64,000 nt of DNA, from contig CAKUPP010000002.1 of NCBI GenBank assembly GCA_934675165.1, positions 3,718-67,717 of the forward strand, given 5' to 3'. The notes beneath the pieces were generated by a model that did no database searches, was not told the DNA's origin, and saw only the letters and a list, made by a program, of their open reading frames with translations. The stretch comes from an uncultured Eubacteriales bacterium. GTDB taxonomy: Bacteria > Bacillota > Clostridia > Oscillospirales > Acutalibacteraceae. Numbering within the stretch: the stretch's first letter is position 1; the number at the start of each line of letters is the position of its first letter. The position numbers were made by a program, and so were the translations under genes. Below are positions 11,837 to 54,086 of this stretch, piece by piece.

Positions 11837-13990
11837 TTATTCCGTTATAACCAATTCCCTGTATTTCCCTTCTTGGGCCATTAATTCATCATGTGTACCA
11901 CGTTGAACCACTTCGCCTCTATCTAAAACTATTATTTCATCACAGTCTCTTATCGTAGAAAGTCTGTGAGCAATAACTATGCATGTGCAACCTATTTTTC
12001 TTATATTCTTCATAACTTTATTTTCCGTTTTTGCGTCAAGTGCAGATGTCGCTTCATCTAAAATTATTATAGTAGGTTCTTGGGCAAGCGCGCGCGCTAT
12101 TTCTATTCTTTGACACTGCCCCCCAGAAAAATCTTTTCCGCCTTCACTCAAAACGTGATTATATCCATCTGGACGAGTAATTATTGCTTCGTGAATATCT
12201 GAGTCTTTGGCGGCTAGAGTAACAGCAAAATCCTCTATAGAAGTATCCCACATACGTATATTATTTTTTATTGTATCGTGAAACATAACTTTATCTTGGT
12301 CAACCATAGAAAGTGATGTATGAAACCGATAATAGCCGATATTGTCTCTTTTAATTCCGTCGAAAAGAATTTCACCTTCCCATGGATCGTAAAGCCCAGT
12401 AAGTAGTTTCGCAACAGTAGATTTTCCACTTCCGCTACCTCCTACTATAGCGATCCACTGACCCGGTTTCACTTTCATACTAAAATTTCTAAGAACAGGA
12501 TTACTAAGTTTTCCATATCCAAATGTTATGTTATTTACCTCAATATTTCCATCAAGTTTGCCAAGATTACTATCTTTTTCATTTAAACTTAAATCGACAT
12601 CAACATCCGTAGGATAATCAAGTACGTCTTCTACTCTTTCCATTTCACAGCGCATTTCAACAAAATCTTGATAAACATCCATTATATCATTCATAGGACT
12701 TAAAAGTTTTTCTAAAAATGTTTGAAACGCCATAAGCATACCAATTGTAAATTTACCTATCATAATTAAATATATACCAGAAAATAACATTATAAAATCA
12801 GCTACGCTTTGAACTATAGTAGGAATTTGTCCTATATATTGAGTAAATTTAGAAAGTGCTGTATTTGCATTGCTCTGCTTTGAATAATAACCTGCCCATC
12901 TTTCAAAATATCCACTTTCTGCACCGGTAGATTTAATAGTTTCTATCATTTCAAAACCAGAATATGTTACGCTAGAAAGTTTTCCTTGATTCGGGACAAG
13001 AACACGTTGATAATCGAGCATTTTTTGAGACGTATAACGAATTACAAACATATTTATTATTGTTGCACTAATCCCAATTATAGTAAGCGGTAAACTCCAA
13101 TTTATCATTATAAACAAGTAAAAAATCATAGACACCGTACCCGGAAGCAGCGGAGAAATTTTTTCTATTAAAGTAATTGCAATATTTGCCGTAGATTCTT
13201 GACGAGAAGCAACATCACCAACATATCTTTGAGAAAAAAAATTAAGCGGCAAACGCAACACATGCCACATAAATTTAGCACTGGATGTAACTACAAATTT
13301 TCCTTGAATTTTGAGCCAATAAACAGATTTAACAACTGCAATCAAAACTTGAAATAATAGTAAAATAAGCATTATACATATAAATGGTGTCAACCATTCG
13401 GGATTTTTACCACTCAAAATATTGTCAATAAATACTCTACCAAAAATCGGAGTTGTCATATCTATTATCAAAACAGCAATACTAAGAAGTGTAGCTAACA
13501 CAAAAGGAAAAGCTGCACCTTTTAAACATCTTTTAGCAAATGTAACAACACTTTTAGGTTTTCCTTCTGGTTTAAAATCTTTTGAAGGAACCATAGAAAG
13601 TGCTATTCCCGTAAAAGCTTTATCAAATTCATCCATGCTAACAACAACTTTTCCTTGCGCCGGATCATTTAAGTACACTTTTTGCTTTTTCTCATCCACA
13701 CCACAAAGAACTACAAAATGGTTAAAATTCCAATGAATTATTGCCGGTAAAACAAGTGATGTTATAGCTTCTGGCTCAAGTTTATAACCAGAAGTTTCAA
13801 ATCCATAGCTACGTGCCGCTGCCAACATATTTTTGGCAACACTACCATCACGAGATACACCACAATCTTCCCTTACCTGAGTGAGCGGTATCCATTTTTT
13901 ATAGTACGCTGCTATCATGCAAACACAAGCAGCTCCACATTCAAGAGCTTCCATTTGCATAATCACAGGCACTTTTAATCTTTTTTTCAC
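11837..13990 (-). CDS. Bacteriocin ABC exporter with an N-terminal C39 (double-glycine) peptidase domain.
   Basis: VIMQMEALECGAACVCM is the C39 catalytic Cys motif. Walker A GGSGSGKST, signature FSGGQCQR, Walker B IILDEATS. The likely start is the GTG at 13990, 8 nt after GGAGG. Confidence 0.9.
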   Translation of the reverse strand: MKKRLKVPVIMQMEALECGAACVCMIAAYYKKWIPLTQVREDCGVSRDGSVAKNMLAAARSYGFETSGYKLEPEAITSLVLPAIIHWNFNHFVVLCGVDEKKQKVYLNDPAQGKVVVSMDEFDKAFTGIALSMVPSKDFKPEGKPKSVVTFAKRCLKGAAFPFVLATLLSIAVLIIDMTTPIFGRVFIDNILSGKNPEWLTPFICIMLILLLFQVLIAVVKSVYWLKIQGKFVVTSSAKFMWHVLRLPLNFFSQRYVGDVASRQESTANIAITLIEKISPLLPGTVSMIFYLFIMINWSLPLTIIGISATIINMFVIRYTSQKMLDYQRVLVPNQGKLSSVTYSGFEMIETIKSTGAESGYFERWAGYYSKQSNANTALSKFTQYIGQIPTIVQSVADFIMLFSGIYLIMIGKFTIGMLMAFQTFLEKLLSPMNDIMDVYQDFVEMRCEMERVEDVLDYPTDVDVDLSLNEKDSNLGKLDGNIEVNNITFGYGKLSNPVLRNFSMKVKPGQWIAIVGGSGSGKSTVAKLLTGLYDPWEGEILFDGIKRDNIGYYRFHTSLSMVDQDKVMFHDTIKNNIRMWDTSIEDFAVTLAAKDSDIHEAIITRPDGYNHVLSEGGKDFSGGQCQRIEIARALAQEPTIIILDEATSALDAKTENKVMKNIRKIGCTCIVIAHRLSTIRDCDEIIVLDRGEVVQRGTHDELMAQEGKYRELVITE

Positions 13991-30663: not shown

Positions 30664-31041
30664 ATGTCAGAAAAAGTAACAAAATTGATTGAAGATGTAA
30701 AAGGTTTAACAGTTCTCGAACTCAGCGAATTAGTAAAAGCTCTTGAAGAAAAGTTTGGAGTATCAGCAGCAGCTCCTGTAGCAGTTGCAGCAGCTCCTGC
30801 AGCAGGCGCACCTGCCGCAGCAGAAGAAAAAACTGAATTTGATGTTATCTTAAAAGCAGCTGGAGACAACAAGATCAAAGTTGTTAAAGCTGTTAAAGAA
30901 ATCACAGGTCTTGGTCTCAAAGAAGCAAAAGCTATAGTTGATGGAGCTCCAAAAGCTTTAAAAGAAAAAGTTTCCAAAGATGTAGCTGAAGATATCAAAA
31001 AACAATTAACAGAACTTGGCGCAGAAGTAGAAGTTAAATAG
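30664..31041 (+). CDS. rplL: 50S ribosomal protein L7/L12.
   Basis: Ala/Pro hinge and the C-terminal domain [18 protein letters not shown]. Confidence 0.95.
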
Positions 31042-42933: not shown

Positions 42934-45279
42934 TTAGTTTTTCTTATTTATATCCATTTCTAAAAATTGCTGATAATTTATGAGCACCTGTCTCGGTTTG
43001 GATCCTTCATATGGGCCAACTACACCCAATTGTTCCATTTCATCCATCAAACGACCTGCACGCGCATAACCTACTCTAAGTTTTCTTTGCAAAAATGAAG
43101 TAGACGCTTGTCCTGCTTCAACAACGCATTTTATAGCTTCTGTTATAGCTGAATCTAATGAATTTTCTCCACTTGCTGATTCATCATTTTTTGAATTTTC
43201 AGTAACCGCATTTTTTTCAATTTCTTCTGCAATTTTTACGTCGTAAGAAGACTCTTGTGAATTTTTTAAAAATTTTATCACATTTTCTATTTCTCCATCG
43301 GTAACATAGCACCCTTGCACTCTTATAGGTTTTGAAGATCCCACTGGAGAAAAAAGCATATCTCCACGCCCTAAAAGCTTTTCAGCACCGCTCATATCTA
43401 AAATTGTTCTTGAATCTATCTGTGACGAAACTGCAAGAGCGATTCTACTCGGAATATTTGCCTTAATTATTCCGGTTATAACATCAACCGAAGGCCTCTG
43501 AGTAGCAATAACAATATGCATCCCAGCAGCTCTGGCCATTTGAGCCAATCTACACACATAATCTTCAACTTCGCGCGGGGCAGCCATCATAAGATCAGAA
43601 AGTTCATCTATTATTATAACTATTTGCGGCATTTTTTCCAAAATTTCGCCCTCTTTATCAGTTACCAATGGATGACTATCAATAAATTTATTATACGATT
43701 CCAAATCTCTAACATTATTCTCTGCAAATTTTTTATACCGTAATAGCATTTCATTAACAGCCCAATTTAATGCGCCAGCCGCTTTACGCGCATCGGTAAC
43801 AACAGGAACAAGTAAGTGCGGTATCCCATTATATATTCCCAATTCTACAACTTTAGGATCTATCATTAAAAGCTTTACTTCATCCGGGCGAGCTTTATAC
43901 AATATACTGATTATAAATGAATTTATACACACAGATTTGCCAGAACCTGTTGAACCAGCTATTAAAAGATGGGGCATTTTTGCTAAATCAGTTATCATTA
44001 TATCTCCTGAGATGTCTCTTCCCAAAACAACAGATAATTTACTACCAGCAGATATAAACTTGGAAGAAGATATAAGCTCTTTCATATTTACAACACTTAC
44101 AACCTTATTCGGAATTTCAACACCAACTGCGGCTTTACCAGGTATTGGTGCCTCTATACGCACTCCAGAAGCAGCCAAATTAAGCGCTATATCATCGGCA
44201 AGAGTTGTAATTTTACTTATCTTCACACCGGCGGCTGGCTGAAGTTCATATCTTGTAACAGCAGGGCCTCGGCTTATATCAACAATTTTTGTTTGAACAT
44301 TGAAACTTTTTAAAGTGTCTACTAAAATTTTACCATTATTACTAAGTTCAAAACTAATATCATGATCGTCAGGATCAACAGATGAATTTAAAAGATTGAT
44401 CGGAGGAAATTCATAATTTTCTTTATTTTCACCAAACAATGATTTTTCTACACTAAATTTAATATCATTTTTTTCCTCCAGATTTTTTTCGGTGAAATTC
44501 GATTGATTATTTTTATCCTTTGATAAAAACTTTTCTGTTACTTTTAATATATCATCATTTTCTTCGCTAAAATTAATCGGAGTTTCATCTTCAATTGTAT
44601 TACTGGGAAATTTACTATTTGAATTAAGTAGTTCTAATTTTTCATCATTTAAAATTTCTTTTTCTTCAATTTTTTTAGATTTTTCAGACTTCTTTTTGCA
44701 AACATAATCATCAATTTTACTTCTCAACCAAAAGAAGGTATCAGAAACTGCTTTTAAAAAATCACTTAACTTTGCTCCAGTTAAAAAAATAGTAAGCAAA
44801 AATAATATTATCAGTGCAGTAGCTTTTGCACCTGCTAAGCCGAACCCCCACACGGCAAAAGCTCCTAAAATTGCTCCAATAAAACCGGAATTAAAATTAA
44901 ATTTTCCTGATACACATTCTTGAAATAAAGACTTCCAAAATCCCAAAGACAGATTCTGAGAGTTACCCCATACAAAAATATATACCGCTGCGCTTAAAAA
45001 AAATATACCCATTACCGAAATCCAATACTTTAGCAAAAACTTATTACTTATTTTCCCCATAGTATCAGCAATAACCCAAATTGCACCTAAAATTGGAATT
45101 AAAACACAACAAATCCCAAACAATGCAAAAATAAAATTATGCACTACACGCCAAATATTTTCTCCACGAATAATAATTAAACTCATTAAAAACAAAGAAC
45201 CGCAAAACATTAATATATTTTTAACGTTTGTTTTCTGAACACCGTACTCAATTTTTGATATTTTTTTCTTCTTTTTCAA
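42934..45279 (-). CDS. ftsK: FtsK/SpoIIIE-family DNA translocase.
   Basis: N-terminal TM segments, Walker A GSTGSGKS, and the C-terminal gamma winged helix LQRKLRVGYARAGRLMDEME. Confidence 0.9.
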   Translation of the reverse strand: MKKKKKISKIEYGVQKTNVKNILMFCGSLFLMSLIIIRGENIWRVVHNFIFALFGICCVLIPILGAIWVIADTMGKISNKFLLKYWISVMGIFFLSAAVYIFVWGNSQNLSLGFWKSLFQECVSGKFNFNSGFIGAILGAFAVWGFGLAGAKATALIILFLLTIFLTGAKLSDFLKAVSDTFFWLRSKIDDYVCKKKSEKSKKIEEKEILNDEKLELLNSNSKFPSNTIEDETPINFSEENDDILKVTEKFLSKDKNNQSNFTEKNLEEKNDIKFSVEKSLFGENKENYEFPPINLLNSSVDPDDHDISFELSNNGKILVDTLKSFNVQTKIVDISRGPAVTRYELQPAAGVKISKITTLADDIALNLAASGVRIEAPIPGKAAVGVEIPNKVVSVVNMKELISSSKFISAGSKLSVVLGRDISGDIMITDLAKMPHLLIAGSTGSGKSVCINSFIISILYKARPDEVKLLMIDPKVVELGIYNGIPHLLVPVVTDARKAAGALNWAVNEMLLRYKKFAENNVRDLESYNKFIDSHPLVTDKEGEILEKMPQIVIIIDELSDLMMAAPREVEDYVCRLAQMARAAGMHIVIATQRPSVDVITGIIKANIPSRIALAVSSQIDSRTILDMSGAEKLLGRGDMLFSPVGSSKPIRVQGCYVTDGEIENVIKFLKNSQESSYDVKIAEEIEKNAVTENSKNDESASGENSLDSAITEAIKCVVEAGQASTSFLQRKLRVGYARAGRLMDEMEQLGVVGPYEGSKPRQVLINYQQFLEMDINKKN

Positions 45280-45318
45280 TGTCTTCTACAACCCTACTCT
45301 TTCTATGAAATAATTATT

Positions 45319-46260
45319 CTATAACGCAGCACCCGTAAATATATTAACTCCATTTATATATTCAATAATTCCGATAACAGACACAATTACTCCTACAACA
45401 AAAGTGTAAATAACAAATACCATCATCTTATCTGTTTTCAAAAGCCACTTAAATAACTTAATTGATAAAAATCCAACAACAGCTGCAACTAACATTCCCA
45501 CAATTACTACTGGTAACTCATTAAAATGAATTGCATTCACTTCGACAGCTTCTTTGGTTTCTAAAACAGCAGCAGCTACAATTGCAGGTATACCTAAAAT
45601 GAAAGAATAATCAAGCGCTGCTTGCTTATTTATGCCACGAATAAGTCCCGTTGAAAGAGTTGATCCTGAACGAGATACACCCGGAAAAACCGCTGCAATA
45701 AATTGAGTTATACCAACAAATAAAGCATCTAAAATTGTAAAATTCGTTCTCCCCTCCCAAATTTCGTTTTGAGGAGTCAATTTTGAACGCACACGAATAC
45801 GATTTTGTGCATTTATTCCCATTTTTAGCAATACAGAGGTAACAATAAGAGCTATTCCCACTATAAATATATTTTTATCGCCAGCGAGTTCTTGCGCTAC
45901 TCCTTTTACATTTGTTCCACTGCCAGGAACAGGAACAAACATTAAAAACAATGGCACCAAACCAAGTATAAGCATAATTACCATATTTTGAGATTTTGTA
46001 AGATCTTTGAGACTAAACTTACCTGTAAAAAATTTTTTTAATATTTCAAAAAATGCTCTAACAAGCTCTATAAGAGTTTTATAATAAACAGCCACAACGG
46101 CAATAAGTGTACCTAAATGCAACATAACACTAAAAAAAAGGTTGTTTTCATTCACACCTAAAATATGTTGAGAAATCATTAAGTGCCCACTACTTGATAC
46201 CGGTAAAAATTCTGTTAACCCCTGAACTATTCCTTGAATTATTGAATCTAAAATTGTCAT
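45319..46260 (-). CDS. uppP: Undecaprenyl-diphosphate phosphatase.
   Basis: GLTEFLPVSSSGHL motif and SRSGSTL, in a polytopic protein. Confidence 0.9.
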   Translation of the reverse strand: MTILDSIIQGIVQGLTEFLPVSSSGHLMISQHILGVNENNLFFSVMLHLGTLIAVVAVYYKTLIELVRAFFEILKKFFTGKFSLKDLTKSQNMVIMLILGLVPLFLMFVPVPGSGTNVKGVAQELAGDKNIFIVGIALIVTSVLLKMGINAQNRIRVRSKLTPQNEIWEGRTNFTILDALFVGITQFIAAVFPGVSRSGSTLSTGLIRGINKQAALDYSFILGIPAIVAAAVLETKEAVEVNAIHFNELPVVIVGMLVAAVVGFLSIKLFKWLLKTDKMMVFVIYTFVVGVIVSVIGIIEYINGVNIFTGAAL

Positions 46261-46559
46261 ACTATATGCTCCTGACTAAAATTTATATTTTTAGAAATAA
46301 AACTTTTATGTATTTACTGATTTATTTCTTTTATTTAAATTATATCAGATTTTTTTAATTTTAAATATAAAAAATAAAAATTTTTTTAAATATCTACATC
46401 CAAATAATTCAAGTATTACCTAAATAAATAACATATATAATTTATTTTTCTAAAATATCATAAAAAAATCACGATGCATTCGTAAAAATTTTGAATTCAT
46501 TTTGCTTTAATCATCTGCCTAATACAAATTTTTACTCAATATCATCGCGTACAAACAAT

Positions 46560-47342
46560 CTAAGTTGAAAATAATATAAATTTTATTGTAGAAAGTGGAC
46601 TATCAGATTTTATAATATTTATTTTTTCTATTAAACAATTATTTATGAACCATTTAAAACTGGGAATCACTAAGCAAAATTTATACTTATTATTAAAAAT
46701 ATAATCTTGCCCAAATTCTTTACCATAAGTTTTTCTTCCAACAAGGTACACATTATTTAAATTTGCATATAAAGAATATGCTAGTATTTCTGCACTGCTA
46801 GCAGTATTCTCATCAACTAATATAAATATATGTTTAAAGTTATACATTTTTTTATTTGAGTAATATGTAACCATTTTATTTTTGTATCTAAGGGTAACTA
46901 TCTCTCTCTCTGGTAAAAATAAATCACATATATCTACGCATTGCTTAAGGTAGCCACCACCACATCCTCTTAAATCTAGTATAAGATTTTCTTTTTTTAC
47001 ATCATTTAAAATTTTAATTAAATCTGTATATAAACTTTTACTCCATAAGTTAAGCTTTATATATAAAGAGTTTTTAAAATAAATATCTGTAAAACACGAT
47101 TTTAAATCCATTTTCCTTTTGCGACAACGATAAAATTGCGTATACAGACTTCCTCTGGTATCAACAATAAAATTTTCCATATCTTCATAAGAAATTTTAT
47201 TTTTACTAAGCAAATTTTGTTTTTTATAAAAATATTTTTCAGACTCTTTAAAAAATATATCATTATTTTCATAATATTGTATACATTTTTCAACAATACT
47301 TCGAGAAAGAAACTTTTTTTCAAATAGCATATTATTCATCAA
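46560..47342 (-). CDS. S41 (C-terminal-processing/Tsp-like) serine peptidase homolog without a signal peptide. Last gene of the RiPP-like operon.
   Basis: LILDLRGCGGG, ILVDENTASSAEILAYSL (Ser nucleophile context) and GRKTYGKEFGQ (Lys). It overlaps the upstream gene by 11 nt. Confidence 0.65.
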   Translation of the reverse strand: MMNNMLFEKKFLSRSIVEKCIQYYENNDIFFKESEKYFYKKQNLLSKNKISYEDMENFIVDTRGSLYTQFYRCRKRKMDLKSCFTDIYFKNSLYIKLNLWSKSLYTDLIKILNDVKKENLILDLRGCGGGYLKQCVDICDLFLPEREIVTLRYKNKMVTYYSNKKMYNFKHIFILVDENTASSAEILAYSLYANLNNVYLVGRKTYGKEFGQDYIFNNKYKFCLVIPSFKWFINNCLIEKINIIKSDSPLSTIKFILFST

Positions 47343-48000
47343 TCACATTTCCGACGTTATCAAGTAGTTTTTTAGTGTTTATAAAAAGTATTTCTGAATT
47401 ATTTTTTCTATTAATTAACAAGCAAATACCAGTTATTACAATAGAAATTAAAACACAAATTAACAATGTTTTTTTATTAGCATCAAGAACATTTGGAAAG
47501 AAAAATACACAAGCCACAATAGCAAAACTAAACAATCCGAATGGCATTTGCAAACATTGTTTTACAATAGAATAATCAACAAAATATAAAGTATTCGATA
47601 AAACAAGTGAAAAAGCTAAAAATATATTTATCAAACCAAAAACAATCATATCCATATTTAGATTTATGCCAAATATCAATGAAAATAATATGAGAACTAT
47701 ATATGAATATATGTAACTACTTACTGTAATAATTACTGCATTGCATACCCAGTTTTTTTTAGGAGTAAATGGCGTAGCCAAAAGATATCCACTATAAATT
47801 AAATCTTCAGGGTTCCAATGAATAAACATACTCAAATATGTAACCACCGTAGAAAAATAAAAAAACATTTTTTCTTTTGGTATCTTCAAAAAATAAAACA
47901 AAATAAAACATACAAGTGGTAACAATATAAGGCCTAGTAATTTTCTACTGTTTTTAAGTTCTTTCCACCTTTTCCAAATTAACGCTTTAATAAAAATCAC
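47332..48000 (-). CDS. Polytopic membrane protein (about 6 TM). Putative ABC-2-type permease or immunity component.
   Basis: Hydrophobicity pattern. 4-nt overlap with the upstream gene and 11-nt overlap with the downstream gene. Confidence 0.55.
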   Translation of the reverse strand: MIFIKALIWKRWKELKNSRKLLGLILLPLVCFILFYFLKIPKEKMFFYFSTVVTYLSMFIHWNPEDLIYSGYLLATPFTPKKNWVCNAVIITVSSYIYSYIVLILFSLIFGINLNMDMIVFGLINIFLAFSLVLSNTLYFVDYSIVKQCLQMPFGLFSFAIVACVFFFPNVLDANKKTLLICVLISIVITGICLLINRKNNSEILFINTKKLLDNVGNVIDE

Positions 48001-48617
48001 TCCTTTATTACAATTTTTTCAAATGATGTACAATGAAAAAATTTTTTATAAACTATAGCATTTAAAAATACCAGACATAACATAACTATTGGCACACAAG
48101 AGCAACTACATTTATTTATGGTATCAAATACAAAAAATAATATTCCAAAACTTAAATTTACAATAAAATAAACGTGCACTTTTTTCATAAATAAAAACAT
48201 TGAATAAATATTTAATGAAAATATAAAAAACATTGCTAACGATATTACAAAAATCAACACATCACTAAGTTTTGCAAACTTTAAAGCAAAACTAAAAGTT
48301 AATACTATACATATCTTTATGTACGCAGCAAAAACATAGCTTTCAATTAAAGTTCTCGGAGAAAAAGGCAACGTACAAAGTATCTGATTATTTAAACCAA
48401 ACACAGTATCAAAATTTATCAGCACATCAAACACAATACTCGTAACAAAAACACACAACAATGTACCAATTAATGATATATCAATTCTTAATAGTACACA
48501 TACTACAATTACGTAACTAATACTTATTATTTTTCGATTTTTTATTTTTTTATTTTGAAACCAAAAAAATGTTAGCCCATTTTGTATTGTCGACTTTATT
48601 ACCGAATTGATTTTCAT
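47997..48617 (-). CDS. Polytopic membrane protein (about 6 TM). Putative ABC-2-type permease or immunity component.
   Basis: Hydrophobicity pattern, immediately downstream of the ABC ATPase. Confidence 0.55.
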   Translation of the reverse strand: MKINSVIKSTIQNGLTFFWFQNKKIKNRKIISISYVIVVCVLLRIDISLIGTLLCVFVTSIVFDVLINFDTVFGLNNQILCTLPFSPRTLIESYVFAAYIKICIVLTFSFALKFAKLSDVLIFVISLAMFFIFSLNIYSMFLFMKKVHVYFIVNLSFGILFFVFDTINKCSCSCVPIVMLCLVFLNAIVYKKFFHCTSFEKIVIKE

Positions 48618-48621
48618 AAGT

Positions 48622-49380
48622 CTACCCTTCTATTCCAAACACTTTTCTATATATAAACTCCAAGTCAATTTTATTGTCAGCATTTTTATCATTAGGACAA
48701 TATTTCTCTATTAAGGAATCTAAGTCAGATTCTTCTATTATTTGACCTTTATTTATAAAACCATATCTATCACACATTTTCTCCAACTCAGACAAATTGT
48801 GTGAATTTATAAATACAGTCACTCCACGCTCTTTAGCTACTTTAACATAATTTCTAACCATAAAAATTCCTTCAACATCTAATCCTACCGTTGGTTCATC
48901 CAAAATTAAAAGTTTAGGTTTATTAATAAAAGCTCTGGCAAGAGCTAATCTTTGCTTTTGCCCTTTAGAAAACATTATTATTTTTTCGTTCATTTTTTGC
49001 TTCAAATCAACTAAATCTAATACTGACATAATATCTGATCTTCTATCAGATGCAGTTGCCATGGGATAATAAATTCTATGAAAAAATTCAATATTTTCAT
49101 ACGCAGTTAAATCTTTGTATAACCCTAAATTATCTAAAACACACCCTATTTTATATTTTTTTTCAATAAACTTATTGTCATTTACACCAATTCCATCTAC
49201 TGTTATAATTCCTGAAGACAAAAAATAAATATTAAGAAGCAATCGAACAAAAGTACTTTTTCCTGCACCGTTAGGACCTATTAACCCATAAACTTCTCCG
49301 CTTTTTATATGTAAATTTATATTTTGTAAAATATTTTTTCCATTTATAGATTTACAAACATTTTTTGCGATTATTTCCAT
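48622..49380 (-). CDS. ABC transporter ATP-binding protein (ABC-2/bacitracin-type).
   Basis: Walker A GPNGAGKST, signature FSKGQKQRLALARA, Walker B LLILDEPT. It overlaps the upstream rSAM gene by 10 nt. Confidence 0.85.
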   Translation of the reverse strand: MEIIAKNVCKSINGKNILQNINLHIKSGEVYGLIGPNGAGKSTFVRLLLNIYFLSSGIITVDGIGVNDNKFIEKKYKIGCVLDNLGLYKDLTAYENIEFFHRIYYPMATASDRRSDIMSVLDLVDLKQKMNEKIIMFSKGQKQRLALARAFINKPKLLILDEPTVGLDVEGIFMVRNYVKVAKERGVTVFINSHNLSELEKMCDRYGFINKGQIIEESDLDSLIEKYCPNDKNADNKIDLEFIYRKVFGIEG

Positions 49381-50513
49381 AAAGACTCCTCCAATATATA
49401 GTTGCAGTTTTGCCGAGGATCATTAAAAATGCATCTGTCACAAGCATATCTAAATTCACACAACGCACAAACCATGTCATCATCTATTTTATTATTCCAA
49501 TAATTTTCCATAATACTTTTTATAACTGTAGACCACTTATCGAAAATGACATTTCCGACTTTTTTATTTTTGATAATATCGTAGTCAAAATCATTATTCA
49601 CACAATAATTACTAAATTTTGTATCACTAATACATGCACCTAAACACGGATATACATCCCCATTTTCCATTATAGCTATCTTTCCATTCAAACATTTATT
49701 GTGTTCTTTTCGTAAGAAAAAATTAAATATGTCCATATTTGGCATATTATTTTTATTAATTTTTGGCGCACGAGTAGAAGAAATTAGTACTGTCCACTCA
49801 GAAGGAATCGCTATGTTTTTCTTATTTTCTAAAGAGCAGTATACAACCAATGTAACGTTTTTGTATTCTTTATAATTTTCTACAATCTTACTAATATTGT
49901 CAGCATCAAAGAGCGATATCAAAATCGATAATTTTTTATTATATCCCTCAACTCGTTTCATTCCGTTAGTGCTTACTGTAAAGGTCATATTAAGGTATGA
50001 AATAAAATCACATAAAACCATTAAATCAGGATATAAAACACATTCCCCGCCAGTCAAAATAATATGTTTACATCCAAATTTTTTTAAATTACGTACGACC
50101 TCTTTCCATTTTTTCAAACTCATACACCTATCAGTGTTTTCACTTTTAAAACAAGTCGGACAAAATACTTTTCCGCAATTATAACATGAAAGATTACAAT
50201 CATTCGTTAGTTTTAGAATTGCTGAACTTATATATGGAACATCCTTAAAAAATCTTTTATTATTAAAAATATTAGTAAGTCTGTATTTATCAATAAAAAT
50301 AGGGTTATTACTTATAATTCCCCAGTTATTATCAGATAAAGATTCAAAAATTTCTTTTTGTTCTACAGACACAGTTTTATTCTTTTCGCATTCTTTCAAC
50401 AAATAAGCTAAATTATTATCAATCCAAAGAGATTTTTTGCTTAAAATATTTTGTAAAAGAGATTTATTTTTACCCACAACTAAATACACTTCTGGTAACA
50501 ATCTAAAATACAC
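49371..50513 (-). CDS. Radical SAM/SPASM peptide maturase with an N-terminal RRE (PqqD-like) region.
   Basis: CNLSCYNC (Cx3Cx2C). C-terminal SPASM Cys pattern C-x15-C ... CALCEFRYACDRC ... C. The N-terminal ~90 aa (YFRLLPEVYLVVGKNKSLLQNI...) resemble a leader-binding domain. The GTG start overlaps the upstream stop by 1 nt. Confidence 0.8.
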   Translation of the reverse strand: MYFRLLPEVYLVVGKNKSLLQNILSKKSLWIDNNLAYLLKECEKNKTVSVEQKEIFESLSDNNWGIISNNPIFIDKYRLTNIFNNKRFFKDVPYISSAILKLTNDCNLSCYNCGKVFCPTCFKSENTDRCMSLKKWKEVVRNLKKFGCKHIILTGGECVLYPDLMVLCDFISYLNMTFTVSTNGMKRVEGYNKKLSILISLFDADNISKIVENYKEYKNVTLVVYCSLENKKNIAIPSEWTVLISSTRAPKINKNNMPNMDIFNFFLRKEHNKCLNGKIAIMENGDVYPCLGACISDTKFSNYCVNNDFDYDIIKNKKVGNVIFDKWSTVIKSIMENYWNNKIDDDMVCALCEFRYACDRCIFNDPRQNCNYILEESLWK

Positions 50514-51916
50514 TATGCCATATCCCCCATTCTATTCAAACGAGTATAATAATCTGTTGTTATTTCTTCAAAAAGTTTTGGATTTTGTTCCAGCAATTCG
50601 GTATATTCTATTAACAGTTGTTTTATAAAATTTATTTGCCTATTGCATATTTTTTCATCATATTTAAACCCTTTTTCTAAACAAAAATCTTTGAAACACA
50701 ATGAACATAATCTCGATATTTTACATTTTTCGCAGTGATTATTCATAGTATCATTATATTCACTTAGCATTTTTGAAATAATCTTATAATTAAGGCCTGA
50801 AAATACGTTACCAATTTTTTTTTGATTATTTACTTTTTCACATACTATAAAATCTCCAGTTGACTCAACATATATTTTTTCTCCCGGAACACACGTTGAT
50901 GTATATGCCCGTATACTGGGTAATTCTTCTGCAACCATTCTGTGGTAAGCAAAGCTTCCATAAATATCACCAAAAAAATTATATATAAAAGAATCTTTTT
51001 TTATTTCATCATTTATTGATTTTTGAAAAAATTCATTTTTTACAATATTAAAATTATTAATAAAGTTTTGTTTATTATTTGCAGAAAATTGTTTGTAGTA
51101 TTTAGCACTCTCTGAAACGGCAGCAGCACGCAATATATTAATATCATATTCATCTGCAAATTCACTAAATTTTTTCATATCAGTTTTATAATCATAACAG
51201 GCAGACACAAACACCGCTTGTCCAGGATAATTATTTTTAAAATTATGGTAGTTATTGTACACTATATCAAATGTAGGTTTACCATTTATAAACAACCTAT
51301 TTCTATCATGATTTTCCTTATACCCATCTATACTAACCAAAACATGAAACTTATTTTCGTATAAAAATTTTTGAATGCTATCATTTAATAACACTCCATT
51401 GGTTGTTATATGCCACTTTACTTTATTTATGTATTCTGGGTATGTAATTTTAATATATTCAACAATTTTCTTTATCAGTTTAAAATTTAGCAAAGGCTCC
51501 CCACCATAAAAACTAATTACAGGTACTCGTTGAGGATTTCTATCAACCACTATTTTAAAATTTTCAAAATAATAATCTACTGCTTTTTTGGCAACATCTA
51601 AACTCATTGAGTTAATACCATGATTCCTCGTAAAATCATAATTTTCAGAATAAGTACAATATTTGCACCTTAAATTACATTTCGAAGTAACTTCTAAAAT
51701 TAACTGCTTAAAACCATTTGCATTATCAATTAAATATTTCTTTACATCACTTACTGTAACTTTATTTAATTTTTCACTTGCTTTAATAAATTTTTTAACA
51801 GCTCTGTACTTTTCAATATCAATTTTGTTTCTAACTTTAAAAAATATATGCCCAGTAACGTTATCATATATGTAATTATTACTTAATTTAGTTTTAAATT
51901 CTATACACTTATCCAA
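50513..51916 (-). CDS. Radical SAM/SPASM peptide maturase (anSME-like, 467 aa).
   Basis: SKCNLRCKYC (Cx3Cx2C), and GGEPLL. SPASM pattern C-x16-C ... CEKCKISRLCSLC ... C. The TTG start follows GGAGGGGGG. Confidence 0.85.
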   Translation of the reverse strand: MDKCIEFKTKLSNNYIYDNVTGHIFFKVRNKIDIEKYRAVKKFIKASEKLNKVTVSDVKKYLIDNANGFKQLILEVTSKCNLRCKYCTYSENYDFTRNHGINSMSLDVAKKAVDYYFENFKIVVDRNPQRVPVISFYGGEPLLNFKLIKKIVEYIKITYPEYINKVKWHITTNGVLLNDSIQKFLYENKFHVLVSIDGYKENHDRNRLFINGKPTFDIVYNNYHNFKNNYPGQAVFVSACYDYKTDMKKFSEFADEYDINILRAAAVSESAKYYKQFSANNKQNFINNFNIVKNEFFQKSINDEIKKDSFIYNFFGDIYGSFAYHRMVAEELPSIRAYTSTCVPGEKIYVESTGDFIVCEKVNNQKKIGNVFSGLNYKIISKMLSEYNDTMNNHCEKCKISRLCSLCFKDFCLEKGFKYDEKICNRQINFIKQLLIEYTELLEQNPKLFEEITTDYYTRLNRMGDMA

Positions 51917-51952
51917 AAATGTCCCCCCTCCTTCGCATAAAGATAAAAAAAA

Positions 51953-52195
51953 TCAACCAGCAGACATTGCAATACTTACAGCCGCTGCAGCTGCACCGGA
52001 CGCTATACTACCAAAAACTGTAGCTGTTGCACCTGAAATTGCGCCAGCAGAAATAGGCCCTAACACTACACATCCCACACACCACGCACATGCAGCGCAA
52101 CCCACACATGCAGCACAGGCTACGCATCCTTGACATCCAGCAATTTCTACTTTTTCTCCAATTTCAATTTCTTCCGCAAAATGTTCTATATTCAT
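51953..52195 (-). CDS. RiPP precursor candidate (80 aa) with an acidic leader and an uncharged core carrying a (CxxC) ladder of eight Cys.
   Basis: Manual reverse translation gives MNIEHFAEEIEIGEKVEIAG-CQGCVACAACVGCAACAWCVGCVVLGPISAGAISGATATVFGSIASGAAAAAVSIAMSAG. GGAGGA lies 8 nt upstream of the ATG at 52195. It is located 36 nt upstream of the first rSAM gene. Confidence 0.75.
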   Translation of the reverse strand: MNIEHFAEEIEIGEKVEIAGCQGCVACAACVGCAACAWCVGCVVLGPISAGAISGATATVFGSIASGAAAAAVSIAMSAG

Positions 52196-52228
52196 AAAAT
52201 ATTCCTCCATGAAACATTATCACATAAA

Positions 52229-52235
52229 TTCGACA
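52229..52235 (-). promoter_or_regulatory. Perfect Spo0A-box heptamer TGTCGAA (proximal). It lies in the spacer of a candidate promoter TTGTAT, 16 nt, TGtGATAAT (-10 is the reverse complement of 52216-52221).
   Basis: The plus strand reads ttcgaca, embedded in the 11-mer aaattcgacaa that recurs at 52322-52332. Confidence 0.4.
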
Positions 52236-52324
52236 AAATACAATTTCCTAAATTATTACAAAAATAACAAATCATATTAATACGTTTAGGCTTTATTATA
52301 AATATTTGACATTATATTAAAAAA

Positions 52325-52331
52325 TTCGACA
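52325..52331 (-). promoter_or_regulatory. Perfect Spo0A-box heptamer TGTCGAA (distal). It lies in the spacer of a candidate promoter TTCAAA, 16 nt, TATAAT (-10 is the reverse complement of 52311-52316).
   Basis: The plus strand reads ttcgaca within the repeated 11-mer. It has the same geometry relative to a -10 element as the proximal box. Confidence 0.4.
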
Positions 52332-52511
52332 ATTTGAATTTTACAATTACATATCTAAAAAATCAATATTATTTAACAAAATCTACTTTTTTAATATATT
52401 TTTAATGTAATTTAATTTATCTTTATTAAATATAAAAAATAGAACATTAATTTTACATATTATTAAAAAATTAATTTTAAATTTTTTATATTAAAACAAT
52501 TAACTTAAACA

Positions 52512-52562
52512 TTAAAAAAATCACCAAGCCATTCAGAAAACAATTTCTGACAGCTTAGTGAT
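52512..52562 (-). terminator. Intrinsic terminator after the MORN-repeat gene, insulating it from the RiPP-like operon.
   Basis: Imperfect ~19-bp stem atcactaagctgtcagaaa/tttctgaatggcttggtgat followed by a 7-nt U-run on the minus strand. Confidence 0.6.
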
Positions 52563-52577
52563 ACTACGCAACATACT

Positions 52578-54086
52578 TTACATCATAGAAATTTCAACAC
52601 ATTTAAGTTCAGTTCTACCTTCATTAAAATAAAATCTTACAAAATATTTATCCTTTATATATTTGTCACTCGGAACACTATTCACATTATTTATGTTAAT
52701 AGCAAGATTAGAAAAAACTGTTCGATAGTAGTTTGGACAATTATAATTTATTGAAGTAAATGGCTCGCACATTACGCTTCGTCTTTCAACAGCACTGCTC
52801 TTCGCTGTAAGTCCCATAAATGCTTCTTTTGTTCCTAAAATTATTTTTTCACATACATATTCACCTTTATCAGGATCTACTTTAAACACTACCGAAGCAT
52901 CTAAATTCAAATAAGTTAAAATCAAATGATTATCTTTTTCCGTTCTGTAAGACTCTTTCCCAAATTCTGTTGTAACTTTTTCAGTACCATTTCCCAAATA
53001 AGCAATGTAATCAATACTGTCTCCACGAAAATTACCACTAAATTGTTGTGATCCTAAAGAATCATATGACTTTCCTGTTCCTTGACGTTTCCCTTTTGAA
53101 AAAGCACCATCATAAACTATCAATGAACTATTAACATCATACAATTGTCCGGAACCATCATAAAGTCCATTTTTAAATTCTCCTGAATAAATTATTGTAC
53201 CTGTATCTACATTGTAAAGATTTCCTGTACCTTCGTAATTTCCATTTGAAAATTCCCCAGAATATAACAAACTCTTATTCGAATACAATTTGCCACTACC
53301 AGAATAAACACCATCTTTGAAAGCGCCCTCATACTTAATTGTACTTCCATCTTTTTCATACTCAACTCCATTGCCTGCACGAACGTCATTAGCGTGATCA
53401 CCGTAGTATGTTTTAAGTTGAGTATCCGGATCATATTCTATGCCTATTCCAGCCTTTACACCTGCAGTAAAATTACCAACATAAATTACTCTTCCTATAG
53501 AGCTGTAAAGTTTTCCTTCCCCTTCATAAAGATTATTAGAAAAATTACCATCATATATCAGTGTACCATCTTTATCATAAAGCTTCCCTCCACCGGAATA
53601 TTTTCCGTTTTGAAAATTACCGCTATAAATTAAATGTCCGTCACTATCATATTGAGTCCCGCTACCACTTGCCTTACCTTTTGAAAGAGTACCCTCATAA
53701 ACTTTTATGCCTTGAGTGTCATAAATGCGAGCTCTACCGTCAAATGTAGTAATTTTTGAAGAATCCACTCTTATATTTGCCGCCCAAAGTTTGCCATCTG
53801 CCCATGGGTAAACCCAATAAACGGCAGCATAACCAATAAATAAAAACACAAGAGAAGTAATTATCGTCATTTTTTTTGAAAAATATATTCCAAAAAATTT
53901 CCAATAGTCCTCTTTAGACTCTGGATTTTTTGTGACTGTTTGTAAAAATTTTTGAATTTTTTGCTGTACTCGTTGAGCTATTTGAGTACCCATATTTTGG
54001 ATCCTTATCATGAAGGTCGTAAGTACAGCAAATTGAGATTGAAGTGTCGCCGTTACTCTTCCAAAAATATCACTTAAAGCATTCAT
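52578..54086 (-). CDS. Membrane-anchored MORN-repeat protein.
   Basis: One TM segment at about residues 73-93, then about 9 tandem MORN units (YxGxFxNGxxxGxGxxY, for example YSGNFQNGKYSGGGKLY and YDGNFSNNLYEGEGKLY). Confidence 0.75.
   Translation of the reverse strand: MNALSDIFGRVTATLQSQFAVLTTFMIRIQNMGTQIAQRVQQKIQKFLQTVTKNPESKEDYWKFFGIYFSKKMTIITSLVFLFIGYAAVYWVYPWADGKLWAANIRVDSSKITTFDGRARIYDTQGIKVYEGTLSKGKASGSGTQYDSDGHLIYSGNFQNGKYSGGGKLYDKDGTLIYDGNFSNNLYEGEGKLYSSIGRVIYVGNFTAGVKAGIGIEYDPDTQLKTYYGDHANDVRAGNGVEYEKDGSTIKYEGAFKDGVYSGSGKLYSNKSLLYSGEFSNGNYEGTGNLYNVDTGTIIYSGEFKNGLYDGSGQLYDVNSSLIVYDGAFSKGKRQGTGKSYDSLGSQQFSGNFRGDSIDYIAYLGNGTEKVTTEFGKESYRTEKDNHLILTYLNLDASVVFKVDPDKGEYVCEKIILGTKEAFMGLTAKSSAVERRSVMCEPFTSINYNCPNYYRTVFSNLAININNVNSVPSDKYIKDKYFVRFYFNEGRTELKCVEISMM

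Follow-up and report, generated by a model that had tools for sequence, protein, structure and literature searches.

A probable thuricin CD-type sactipeptide operon with a conserved period-3 cysteine-ladder precursor in an uncultured Acutalibacteraceae bacterium

Sactipeptides are peptides in which cysteine sulfur is joined to alpha-carbons. [quoted passage not shown] Thuricin Z (huazacin) is likewise made by two distantly related rSAM enzymes, ThzC and ThzD, acting on a single precursor type, and is a hairpin with four nested C-alpha thioethers from Cys4/8/12/16 to residues 38/34/30/26 (PMC8172795). In thurincin H, Cys4/7/10/13 are linked to residues 28/25/22/19, so that donors and acceptors both follow a period of 3 (PMC8172795). 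Here we describe a seven-gene operon in a 64,000-nucleotide stretch, referred to as the window, of contig CAKUPP010000002.1 (assembly GCA_934675165.1) from an uncultured Eubacteriales bacterium of the Acutalibacteraceae. [quoted passage not shown] We consider it likely that the operon is a thuricin CD-type sactipeptide (sactibiotic) cluster serving a new precursor subfamily, with a known enzyme chassis, an uncharacterised precursor subfamily and probably a heavily cross-linked product.

The operon comprises seven tightly packed minus-strand genes between 46560 and 52195, identified from the list of open reading frames (ORFs) in 45000..54000:

51953..52195, minus strand: precursor peptide, 80 amino acids (aa); GGAGG 8 nt before the ATG, homologues beside orthologous rSAM pairs
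50513..51916, minus strand: rSAM-1, 467-aa radical SAM/SPASM enzyme, TrnC homologue; motifs and TrnC match
49371..50513, minus strand: rSAM-2, 380-aa rSAM-SPASM protein with a predicted RiPP recognition element (RRE), TrnD homologue; motifs, TrnD match, AlphaFold 2 (AF2) and Foldseek
48622..49380, minus strand: ABC transporter ATPase, 252 aa, TrnF homologue; PF00005
47997..48617, minus strand: polytopic membrane protein 1, 206 aa, presumed permease or immunity subunit; hydropathy and conserved position
47332..48000, minus strand: polytopic membrane protein 2, 222 aa, presumed permease or immunity subunit; hydropathy and orthologues
46560..47339 (longer start at 47342), minus strand: S41 serine peptidase without PDZ domain, 259 aa, cytoplasmic, predicted leader peptidase; PF03572

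The strand, coordinates, overlaps and small gaps given in the initial annotation all agree with the ORF list. The rSAM-1 stop and the rSAM-2 start have 1 nt in common, and the ABC ATPase gene overlaps the rSAM-2 gene by 10 nt. A 4-nt gap separates the ATPase gene from that of membrane protein 1; the two membrane protein genes overlap by 4 nt, and the second overlaps the peptidase gene by 8 or 11 nt, depending on the start (259 or 260 aa). In Pfam searches both rSAM proteins matched Radical_SAM, the ATPase matched ABC_tran and the peptidase matched Peptidase_S41; the precursor peptide and the two membrane proteins matched no model.

For comparison, trn clusters were recovered from plasmids of the Bacillus cereus group. 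They contain genes for an ABC ATPase, an ABC-2 permease, two small ORFs, a 506-aa rSAM enzyme, a 414-aa rSAM enzyme and an S41 family peptidase. The small ORFs are the published thuricin CD peptides (...GG-NAACVIGCIGSCVISEGIGSLVGTAFTLG and ...GG-WVACVGACGTVCLASGGVGTEFAAASYFL, Trn-alpha and Trn-beta), and the CX3CX2C motifs at C114 of TrnC and C109 of TrnD are the residues that were mutated previously (PMC12093266). Like thuricin CD, the window has precursor coding capacity, two distantly related rSAM/SPASM enzymes with overlapping genes, an S41 peptidase in which no PDZ domain is detectable, an ABC ATPase and membrane subunits, and four of the proteins are detectably homologous: rSAM-1 to TrnC (32% identity over 390 aa, E 2e-57), rSAM-2 to TrnD (27% over the N-terminal 194 aa, residues 2-184, E 2e-14), the S41 peptidase to TrnE (27%, E 2e-7) and the ABC ATPase to TrnF (34%, E 2e-28). 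In both systems the acidic leader ends in two small residues (EEIGG and EEVGG in thuricin CD, EIAG in the window), and the core is hydrophobic with its Cys in the N-terminal half. The notion of an undescribed kind of system was thus not borne out, as all but the two membrane proteins are homologous to Trn counterparts. The annotated lack of any match to a characterised family holds for the precursor, for which neither NCBIfam nor Pfam has a model, and fails for the combination of two SPASM enzymes with an S41 peptidase, which is the thuricin CD gene set. The proposed search with profile models found no curated family cutoff reached by the precursor or the maturases, whereas sequence comparison ties the enzymes to thuricin CD.

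There are also differences. Thuricin CD consists of two peptides with 30-residue cores and three Cys at period 4, whereas the single precursor encoded in the window carries eight Cys at period 3 in a core about 60 residues long. The gene order differs, as does the membrane complement: thuricin CD has one ABC-2 permease, TrnG, which matches PF13346, and the window has two membrane proteins, neither of which does. The S41 peptidase is 259 aa long in the window and 397 aa in TrnE. The Trn enzymes are 27-34% identical to those of the window and fall outside the clade of enzymes associated with Cys-ladder precursors. The system probably works like thuricin CD and thuricin Z, and it is not a member of their precursor families, whose defining features are absent from its peptide.

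The longest small ORF at the precursor locus begins at 52210. The 80-aa start at 52195 is favoured because GGAGG at 52208..52204 sits 8 nt before this ATG, and because independent gene callers in other assemblies also give 80 aa. An acidic leader (MNIEHFAEEIEIGEKVEIAG) precedes the ladder (CQGCVACAACVGCAACAWCVGC), in which eight Cys recur at strict period 3. A VVLGP turn then leads to an uncharged tail of Ala, Gly, Ser and Thr, with 38 aa past the last Cys when the turn is included. Leader, Cys ladder, turn and Cys-free tail form the layout of a sactipeptide precursor. The identical 80-aa peptide was found on 43 contigs and an 84%-identical version on one more. Together with 18 homologues, the window's peptide makes up a family of 19 distinct peptides, each beside an orthologous rSAM pair and each with the same layout. 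Since the ladder is conserved in 19 distinct homologous peptides, it is not a chance feature, and the annotated eight-Cys precursor is real. The initial annotation had suggested examining the neighbourhood in relatives; the small ORF is conserved beside the rSAM pair in every cassette read. The conserved precursor, together with the enzyme motifs described below, supports the annotated reading of an autonomous, sactipeptide-type rSAM RiPP operon.

The family design consists of 6-9 Cys at strict period 3, a V-x-(L/P)-(G/P)-(P/Q) turn and a tail of 32-41 residues rich in Ala, Gly, Thr, Ser and Val. Short-leader forms have an acidic leader that ends in two small residues (EIAG, TTAG, ETAG, EIAA and similar). 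Other members of the family combine this core with an 85-aa Nif11 leader (PF07862), again beside an orthologous rSAM pair (rSAM-1 37% identical; rSAM-2 28%, E 2e-60), at loci without the ABC and S41 genes; the peptide and the rSAM pair therefore constitute the core module. Cores of the family are nearly uncharged (30% Ala, 14% Cys, 12% Val and 10% Gly). The precursor matched no NCBIfam or Pfam model. In the open-access literature, no paper contained two or more of six ladder motif strings, and no sactipeptide with more than four bridges was described. The ladder precursor does look like a new peptide family or subfamily.

Within the family, tail length tracks ladder length, with ladder/tail values of 19/32, 22/35-41 and 24-25/40 residues (Spearman 0.77, 11 sequence groups, p 0.005; a small sample, not corrected for phylogeny). 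Such scaling is what one acceptor per Cys on the return arm would give.

rSAM-1 carries a CX3CX2C motif (C80/C84/C87) and a 7-Cys SPASM motif, both invariant in 12 homologues. Its best sequence match in the PDB is CteB (5wgg, E 8.6e-28), and its top NCBIfam match is the CcpM model TIGR04068 (225.9 bits against a cutoff of 500; orthologues 218-240). It also scored against the models of the RumMC sactipeptide maturases (NF035951, 177 bits, cutoff 720), the Bacteroidetes GG-leader maturase (TIGR04148, 193 bits, cutoff 300), PapB (NF047865, 137.9 bits, cutoff 340), the Nif11-like peptide maturase (TIGR04064, 126 bits, cutoff 518.7) and the SCIFF maturase (TIGR03974, 120.4 bits, cutoff 425). The partner test with the pseudo-rSAM model TIGR04150 gave 29.4 bits against a cutoff of 250. 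Even the maturases beside Nif11-leader ladder peptides reached only 102-112 bits with TIGR04064. The top curated models of rSAM-1 are thus all thioether-type RiPP maturases, and all score far below cutoff. CcpM (CLI_3235) is the best curated model for rSAM-1 and all its orthologues at less than half of the 500-bit cutoff; because TrnC scores in the same way (203 bits, also below cutoff), this match marks only the broad thioether-type SPASM clade. For the same reason, the lack of a curated match says nothing about the novelty of the enzyme.

CteB, the thermocellin/SCIFF maturase, is the closest solved structure to rSAM-1 by sequence and to rSAM-2 by fold, and an RRE, an rSAM and a SPASM domain are common to all; it differs in that it works alone, on a 6-Cys SCIFF peptide, and forms an S-C-gamma link. 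This raises the question of whether the same operon logic could yield ranthipeptide-type links, from sulfur to the beta- or gamma-carbon of tail Thr, Val or Ala, or mixed linkages. The similarity of rSAM-1 to an S-C-gamma enzyme, the presence of the PapB and SCIFF maturase models among its NCBIfam matches, and tails rich in Thr, Val and Ala are all compatible with such links. Cys-X3-Asp/Asn type motifs are typical of ranthipeptides, and the tails are without them; the PapB and SCIFF scores also lie far below their cutoffs (137.9 against 340 and 120.4 against 425). Moreover, the nearest typed clusters with the same enzyme pair, thuricin CD and the huazacin family, make C-alpha thioethers (PMC8172795). 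On balance we consider ranthipeptide-type or mixed linkage unlikely.

rSAM-2 is much more divergent and matches many non-RiPP rSAM families weakly. Among 41 homologues, its CX3CX2C motif (C106 in at least 90%, C113 invariant), the GG of GGE and the SPASM Cys 274/290/349/352/358/361/370 are invariant or nearly so. We considered whether it might be a pseudo-rSAM protein, and ruled this out as CX3CX2C is kept. Four residues past this motif there is an additional C118-P-T-C121 (window 50151-50162), within which C118 is the same in all 41 sequences and C121 is kept in at least 90% of them. An AF2 model was built from the 41-sequence multiple sequence alignment (predicted local distance difference test, pLDDT, 90.2), and the single-sequence AlphaFold model (pLDDT 34) was discarded. 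In the retained model, residues 2-68 form four strands, two helices and one strand ahead of the barrel. Foldseek matched the model best to CteB, SuiB and SkfB, all of them RiPP maturases in which a peptide-recognition domain (RRE) forms the N-terminus. A Pfam scan of the rSAM N-terminal domains for PqqD/RRE found none, even at E <= 10. The annotated RRE-like N-terminus of rSAM-2 is supported by the model and by the homology to TrnD.

The CxxC repeats of the ladder are also classic metal ligands, and it may be asked whether the precursor is a metal- or iron-sulfur-binding peptide and whether the rSAM enzymes perform epimerisation, methylation or other non-thioether work. The divergence of rSAM-2, its weak matches to many non-RiPP families and its extra conserved CPxC would fit such a role. 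However, both enzymes lie in clades whose typed members, thuricin CD and the huazacin family, are thioether-forming systems, the scaling of tail with ladder is not required by metal binding, no metal-handling genes are found in the cassette, and the leader, peptidase and ABC genes follow the standard logic of RiPP bacteriocins. We regard a metal-binding ladder as very unlikely.

Both enzymes retain CX3CX2C, GGE and the 7-Cys SPASM motif across their homologues and adjoin the precursor, and the stop/start overlap between their genes is present at every locus. Neighbour-joining (NJ) trees of rSAM-1 and rSAM-2 are congruent, as expected for co-evolving partners. All ladder-associated pairs, including those of the Nif11 forms, fall into one clade; pairs of the huazacin type form its sister group, and TrnC/TrnD lie further out. 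From sequence relationships, rSAM-1 is predicted to be the main thioether synthase and rSAM-2 its leader-binding partner.

On pRUMAL03 of R. albus the same rSAM pair flanks peptides that NCBI names 'huazacin family RiPP peptide' (NF037972, 50.1 bits, cutoff 35), and homologous pairs on plasmids of C. botulinum and C. perfringens flank sub-threshold relatives of this family. As in the window, the huazacin-family clusters read have a TrnC-like/TrnD-like pair for one precursor type, with an ABC ATPase downstream, and a precursor whose N-terminal arm is rich in Cys and whose (D/L)GP turn is followed by a tail rich in Gly, Ala, Ser and Thr. Unlike those of the window, huazacin-type peptides have 4-5 Cys with irregular or period-4 spacing, and no S41 gene was seen at the huazacin-type loci examined. 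When four ladder precursors were compared with NF037972, none matched at E <= 10, the R. albus positive control scoring 50.1 bits. On the sequence evidence, the window system is closer to huazacin-type clusters than to thuricin CD. Thuricin Z itself was likened through its published description, the comparison of sequences covering enzymes other than ThzC and ThzD. A geometric precedent for the period-3 ladder is thurincin H (PMC8172795), like gnavucin D a hairpin sactipeptide. Thurincin H differs from the window system in having four bridges, a core of about 30 residues, a single rSAM enzyme of the AlbA/ThnB type and other accessory genes (PMC13239113); the AlbA/ThnB type is a different enzyme lineage from TrnC/TrnD.

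The ABC ATPase has a clear PF00005 domain (E 3.9e-33) and scored 177.6 bits with the lantibiotic-protection ABC model TIGR03740 (cutoff 309.75). In hydropathy scans, membrane protein 1 has about six hydrophobic segments and membrane protein 2 has five to six, in agreement with the annotated pair of proteins with about six transmembrane segments. The position of the first is kept in all full cassettes, and orthologues of the second in other cassettes are 26-54% identical. Neither matched a family in the NCBIfam and Pfam scans, and when their profiles were aligned to one another and to that of TrnG, the probabilities ranged from 0.6 to 25% (membrane protein 2 against TrnG, 18% by hhalign).

The S41 peptidase has no hydrophobic segment, which agrees with its annotated cytoplasmic location. 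PF03572 covers residues 93-216 only (E 2.8e-25), and no PDZ domain was detected. T180-A-S182-S-A-E185 and K208 are invariant in five orthologues; when Ctp proteases of solved structure are aligned, these residues fall in their Ser/Lys region. C-terminal processing peptidases (Ctp/Prc/Tsp) combine an S41 catalytic domain bearing a Ser/Lys dyad with a PDZ domain by which the C-terminus of the substrate is read. The model TIGR00225 gave 87 bits (cutoff 218.6), and Ser182 and Lys208 are present in a protein of only 259 aa in which the PDZ domain is not detected. S41 genes occur in all eight of the full short-leader cassettes and in thuricin CD, and are absent from the Nif11-leader forms; Nif11 leaders are normally removed by other machinery. 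S41 enzymes typically cut beside small residues. S41 enzymes are absent from a review of RiPP leader peptidases published in 2023. In the closest metagenomic relative of the window operon, a gene for a calpain-type cysteine peptidase (PF00648, 399 aa; L086 7655-8854, L087 6979-8178) directly follows the S41 gene, which is an unusual accessory gene for a RiPP cluster.

Taken together, these observations suggest the following model. The acidic leader (EEIEIGEKVEIAG) of the 80-aa precursor would be bound by a heterodimer of the translationally coupled rSAM-1 and rSAM-2, which we infer from the homology to TrnC/TrnD and from the gene overlap at every locus. The TrnD-like rSAM-2 would mainly hold the leader through its RRE-like domain, and the TrnC-like rSAM-1 would carry out most of the radical chemistry, abstracting hydrogen from tail residues and joining these to the eight ladder Cys thiols. 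Each period-3 Cys of the outgoing arm would be joined to an acceptor in the return arm, past the VLGP turn, to give nested thioether bridges, as in thurincin H (four bridges, Cys at period 3) and thuricin Z (four bridges, period 4). The cytoplasmic S41 peptidase would cut off the leader after the conserved small-residue pair (A-G, A-A or G-G; A19-G20 in the window's precursor), and the ABC ATPase with the two membrane proteins would export the product, protect the producer or both. About 60 residues long, uncharged and very hydrophobic, the product would be a hairpin closed by up to eight nested thioethers. The calculated monoisotopic mass is 7545.51 Da for the unmodified full-length precursor and 5306.43 Da for the core past Gly20; eight bridges would lower these to 7529.39 and 5290.31 Da. 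The product may act in the gut community as a narrow-spectrum membrane-active bacteriocin; uncharged cores rich in Ala, Cys and Val resemble those of membrane-active sactibiotics. The strictest form of the model, in which all eight ladder Cys (up to nine in relatives) form nested bridges from sulfur to alpha-carbon in a rigid uncharged hairpin of about 60 residues and the S41 protein is a dedicated leader peptidase, is one that we put forward tentatively, as a possibility rather than an expectation.

Several points weigh against this model or parts of it. The homology of rSAM-2 to TrnD is limited to the N-terminal half. The match of the S41 peptidase to TrnE is weak, with a Leu in TrnE opposite the invariant Lys208, and the function of TrnE is itself unknown (PMC8172795). 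Neither membrane protein could be tied to TrnG. rSAM-1, like TrnC, scores under every curated NCBIfam cutoff, and the ladder precursor has no detectable sequence relationship to huazacin-type peptides (hhalign probability 4.5%). Cross-link type (C-alpha as opposed to C-beta/gamma), bridge number and bridge topology are predictions, and the best solved relative of rSAM-1, CteB, is a ranthipeptide (S-C-gamma) enzyme. A Cys directly after the cleavage site, as Cys1 would be, is unusual, so the real cleavage site may be elsewhere, and some of the ladder Cys may be unused. Finally, ladder and tail are not strictly coupled. In P0125, a 929-bp metagenome contig carrying an allele of the L086-type precursor, the ladder lacks exactly two CxxCxx units and is 6 residues shorter, and the tail is unchanged. 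It retains seven Cys, including a CC pair, and may be either a decaying copy or a tolerated variant.

Many metagenomes of the human gut, from the Hadza and from other cohorts, contain the identical operon, and its neighbours are the same each time. More than 1,300 homologues of rSAM-1 were found at E < 1e-20, and genomic context was read for ten. The motifs FYGGEPL and CNLRCKYC, taken from an rSAM-1 alignment to scan a genome collection, are generic to SPASM enzymes, and among the matches listed most were unrelated maturases, L006 and L007 being the informative ones. The full order of precursor, rSAM-1, rSAM-2, ABC ATPase, two membrane proteins and S41 peptidase recurs in other taxa. It is found in two metagenomic lineages with 56-61% identical rSAM-1, one of which (L088/L089) is represented by a plasmid-like contig with Rep3, ParA, a resolvase and an insertion sequence (IS). 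The cassette also occurs in Paenibacillus, in a metagenome-assembled genome of Acetatifactor, in further metagenome contigs and, with two precursors, in Clostridium estertheticum. On an Enterococcus-type mobile element it lies near a relaxase and NikA (L091/L092 12797-14486). rSAM-1 of this element is >90% identical across assemblies named E. faecalis, Anaerococcus vaginalis, S. pyogenes and S. agalactiae, which means either recent horizontal spread or contamination in some third-party annotation (TPA) assemblies.

When rSAM-2 was compared with 1.84 billion cluster representatives by exhaustive profile-free scoring, only 37 matched at E <= 1e-30; the family is therefore rare. The phage collection gave no rSAM-2 match. 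A tblastn search of annotated plasmids returned only 15 records, which were huazacin-type and thuricin CD clusters, and the ladder cassette was not among these plasmid matches. An apparently pseudogenised rSAM-2 in one contig (L002, region 11960-11973) proved to be split by a scaffold gap of Ns, with no frameshift. In the window's own lineage, no empty site was found: each of the 23 contigs read that encode an identical UppP has the operon in the same position. The annotated view of the operon as an inserted module could thus not be confirmed, and what speaks for insertion is confined to base composition (24-28% GC in the operon against 32-38% in flanking genes) and to the mobile-element relatives in other taxa.

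Instead of being aimed mainly at competitors, the product might serve the producer itself: as a peptide embedded in its membrane or displayed on its surface, as a signal or, like SKF, as a factor in cannibalism or differentiation, with the ABC proteins inserting it or giving immunity. Its core is uncharged and as hydrophobic as a membrane segment, the chromosomal site is fixed in 23 of 23 contigs examined, genes dedicated to export or immunity are missing near the Nif11-leader relatives, and P. larvae and other relatives adjoin agr-type quorum-sensing genes. Yet thuricin CD, thuricin Z and thurincin H are all secreted, membrane-targeting bacteriocins (PMC8172795), and carriage on plasmid-like or relaxase-bearing elements with >90% identity across genera is usual for bacteriocin cassettes. 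A producer-directed role therefore seems improbable to us, and a bacteriocin of the thuricin CD type remains our preferred reading.

The surroundings of some related cassettes deserve mention. Directly upstream of the ladder cassette on the Enterococcus-type element there is a second sactipeptide-like cluster (L091/L092 1149-6252), with two peptides of 41 aa (MKPEIVAMGNGCKLCAGCT(A/G)CMFCGP...), each with 5 Cys at period 3 (L092 806-931 and 6383-6508; L099 3995-4120), one AlbA-like rSAM (NF012164, 102 bits, cutoff 850), an ABC ATPase, membrane proteins and a response regulator. In Paenibacillus larvae B-3650 (L154 4903-8592), a 7-Cys ladder precursor and rSAM-1 adjoin agr-type genes for AgrB, a 46-aa peptide, a histidine kinase and a LytTR protein, and a transposase ends the cluster right after rSAM-1. 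L155 has a related rSAM pair, a downstream precursor with irregular Cys spacing and more agr-like genes.

Outside the coding region of the window operon, the following features were noted:

52513..52562, minus strand: intrinsic terminator of the upstream MORN-repeat gene; stem 52520..52562 and U7 52513..52519
52311..52338, minus strand: candidate sigma-70-type promoter TTCAAA-16-TATAAT; 10/12 consensus match only
46261..46559, no strand: AT-rich spacer between the operon and uppP; 299 bp, 19-22% GC

The terminator, already annotated, has a 19-bp stem followed by U7 (dG -23.5 kcal/mol, z = -5.2; none of 200 shuffled sequences folds as well) and marks the upstream boundary of the operon. The candidate promoter falls within the AT-rich leader region and precedes the ATG of the precursor by about 115 nt; promoter-like sites in this region are no more numerous than in shuffled sequence. 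At the other end, the spacer of about 300 bp expected from the initial annotation was confirmed, and the downstream neighbour uppP is identified by PF02673 (BacA). The upstream gene encodes a 502-aa protein with faint MORN-repeat matches and is preceded by a gene for a HAMP-domain protein of 974-979 aa. Across the whole 64-kb window no tRNA genes and no Rfam families at gathering threshold were found. A second Cys-rich frame in the window (30763..30849, minus strand) is the antisense of the Ala-rich hinge of rplL (L7/L12, 30665..31042, plus strand), and was rejected as an artefact.

If the prediction holds, peptides with eight or nine bridges would be added to a sactipeptide class that so far reaches four, and the operon would offer a natural test of the processive reach of a TrnC/TrnD-type pair along its substrate. 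A fully bridged product would have twice the thioethers of any characterised sactipeptide, for which the known maximum is four, and its 22-residue arms would approximate the thickness of a membrane, provided that the backbone is helical as in thurincin H. The locus also provides a second, independent system in which to study the role of the S41 peptidase of thuricin CD-type clusters; leader removal by this enzyme, if true, would be the first functional assignment of an S41 protease, and by extension of TrnE, in RiPP maturation. The fusion of the same core to Nif11 leaders indicates a scaffold that is re-used with a different delivery logic. Since the cassette is carried both by a commensal of the human gut and by a mobile element of Enterococcus, its product may matter for competition in the gut, and for the discovery of narrow-spectrum antimicrobials, the field in which thuricin CD drew interest.

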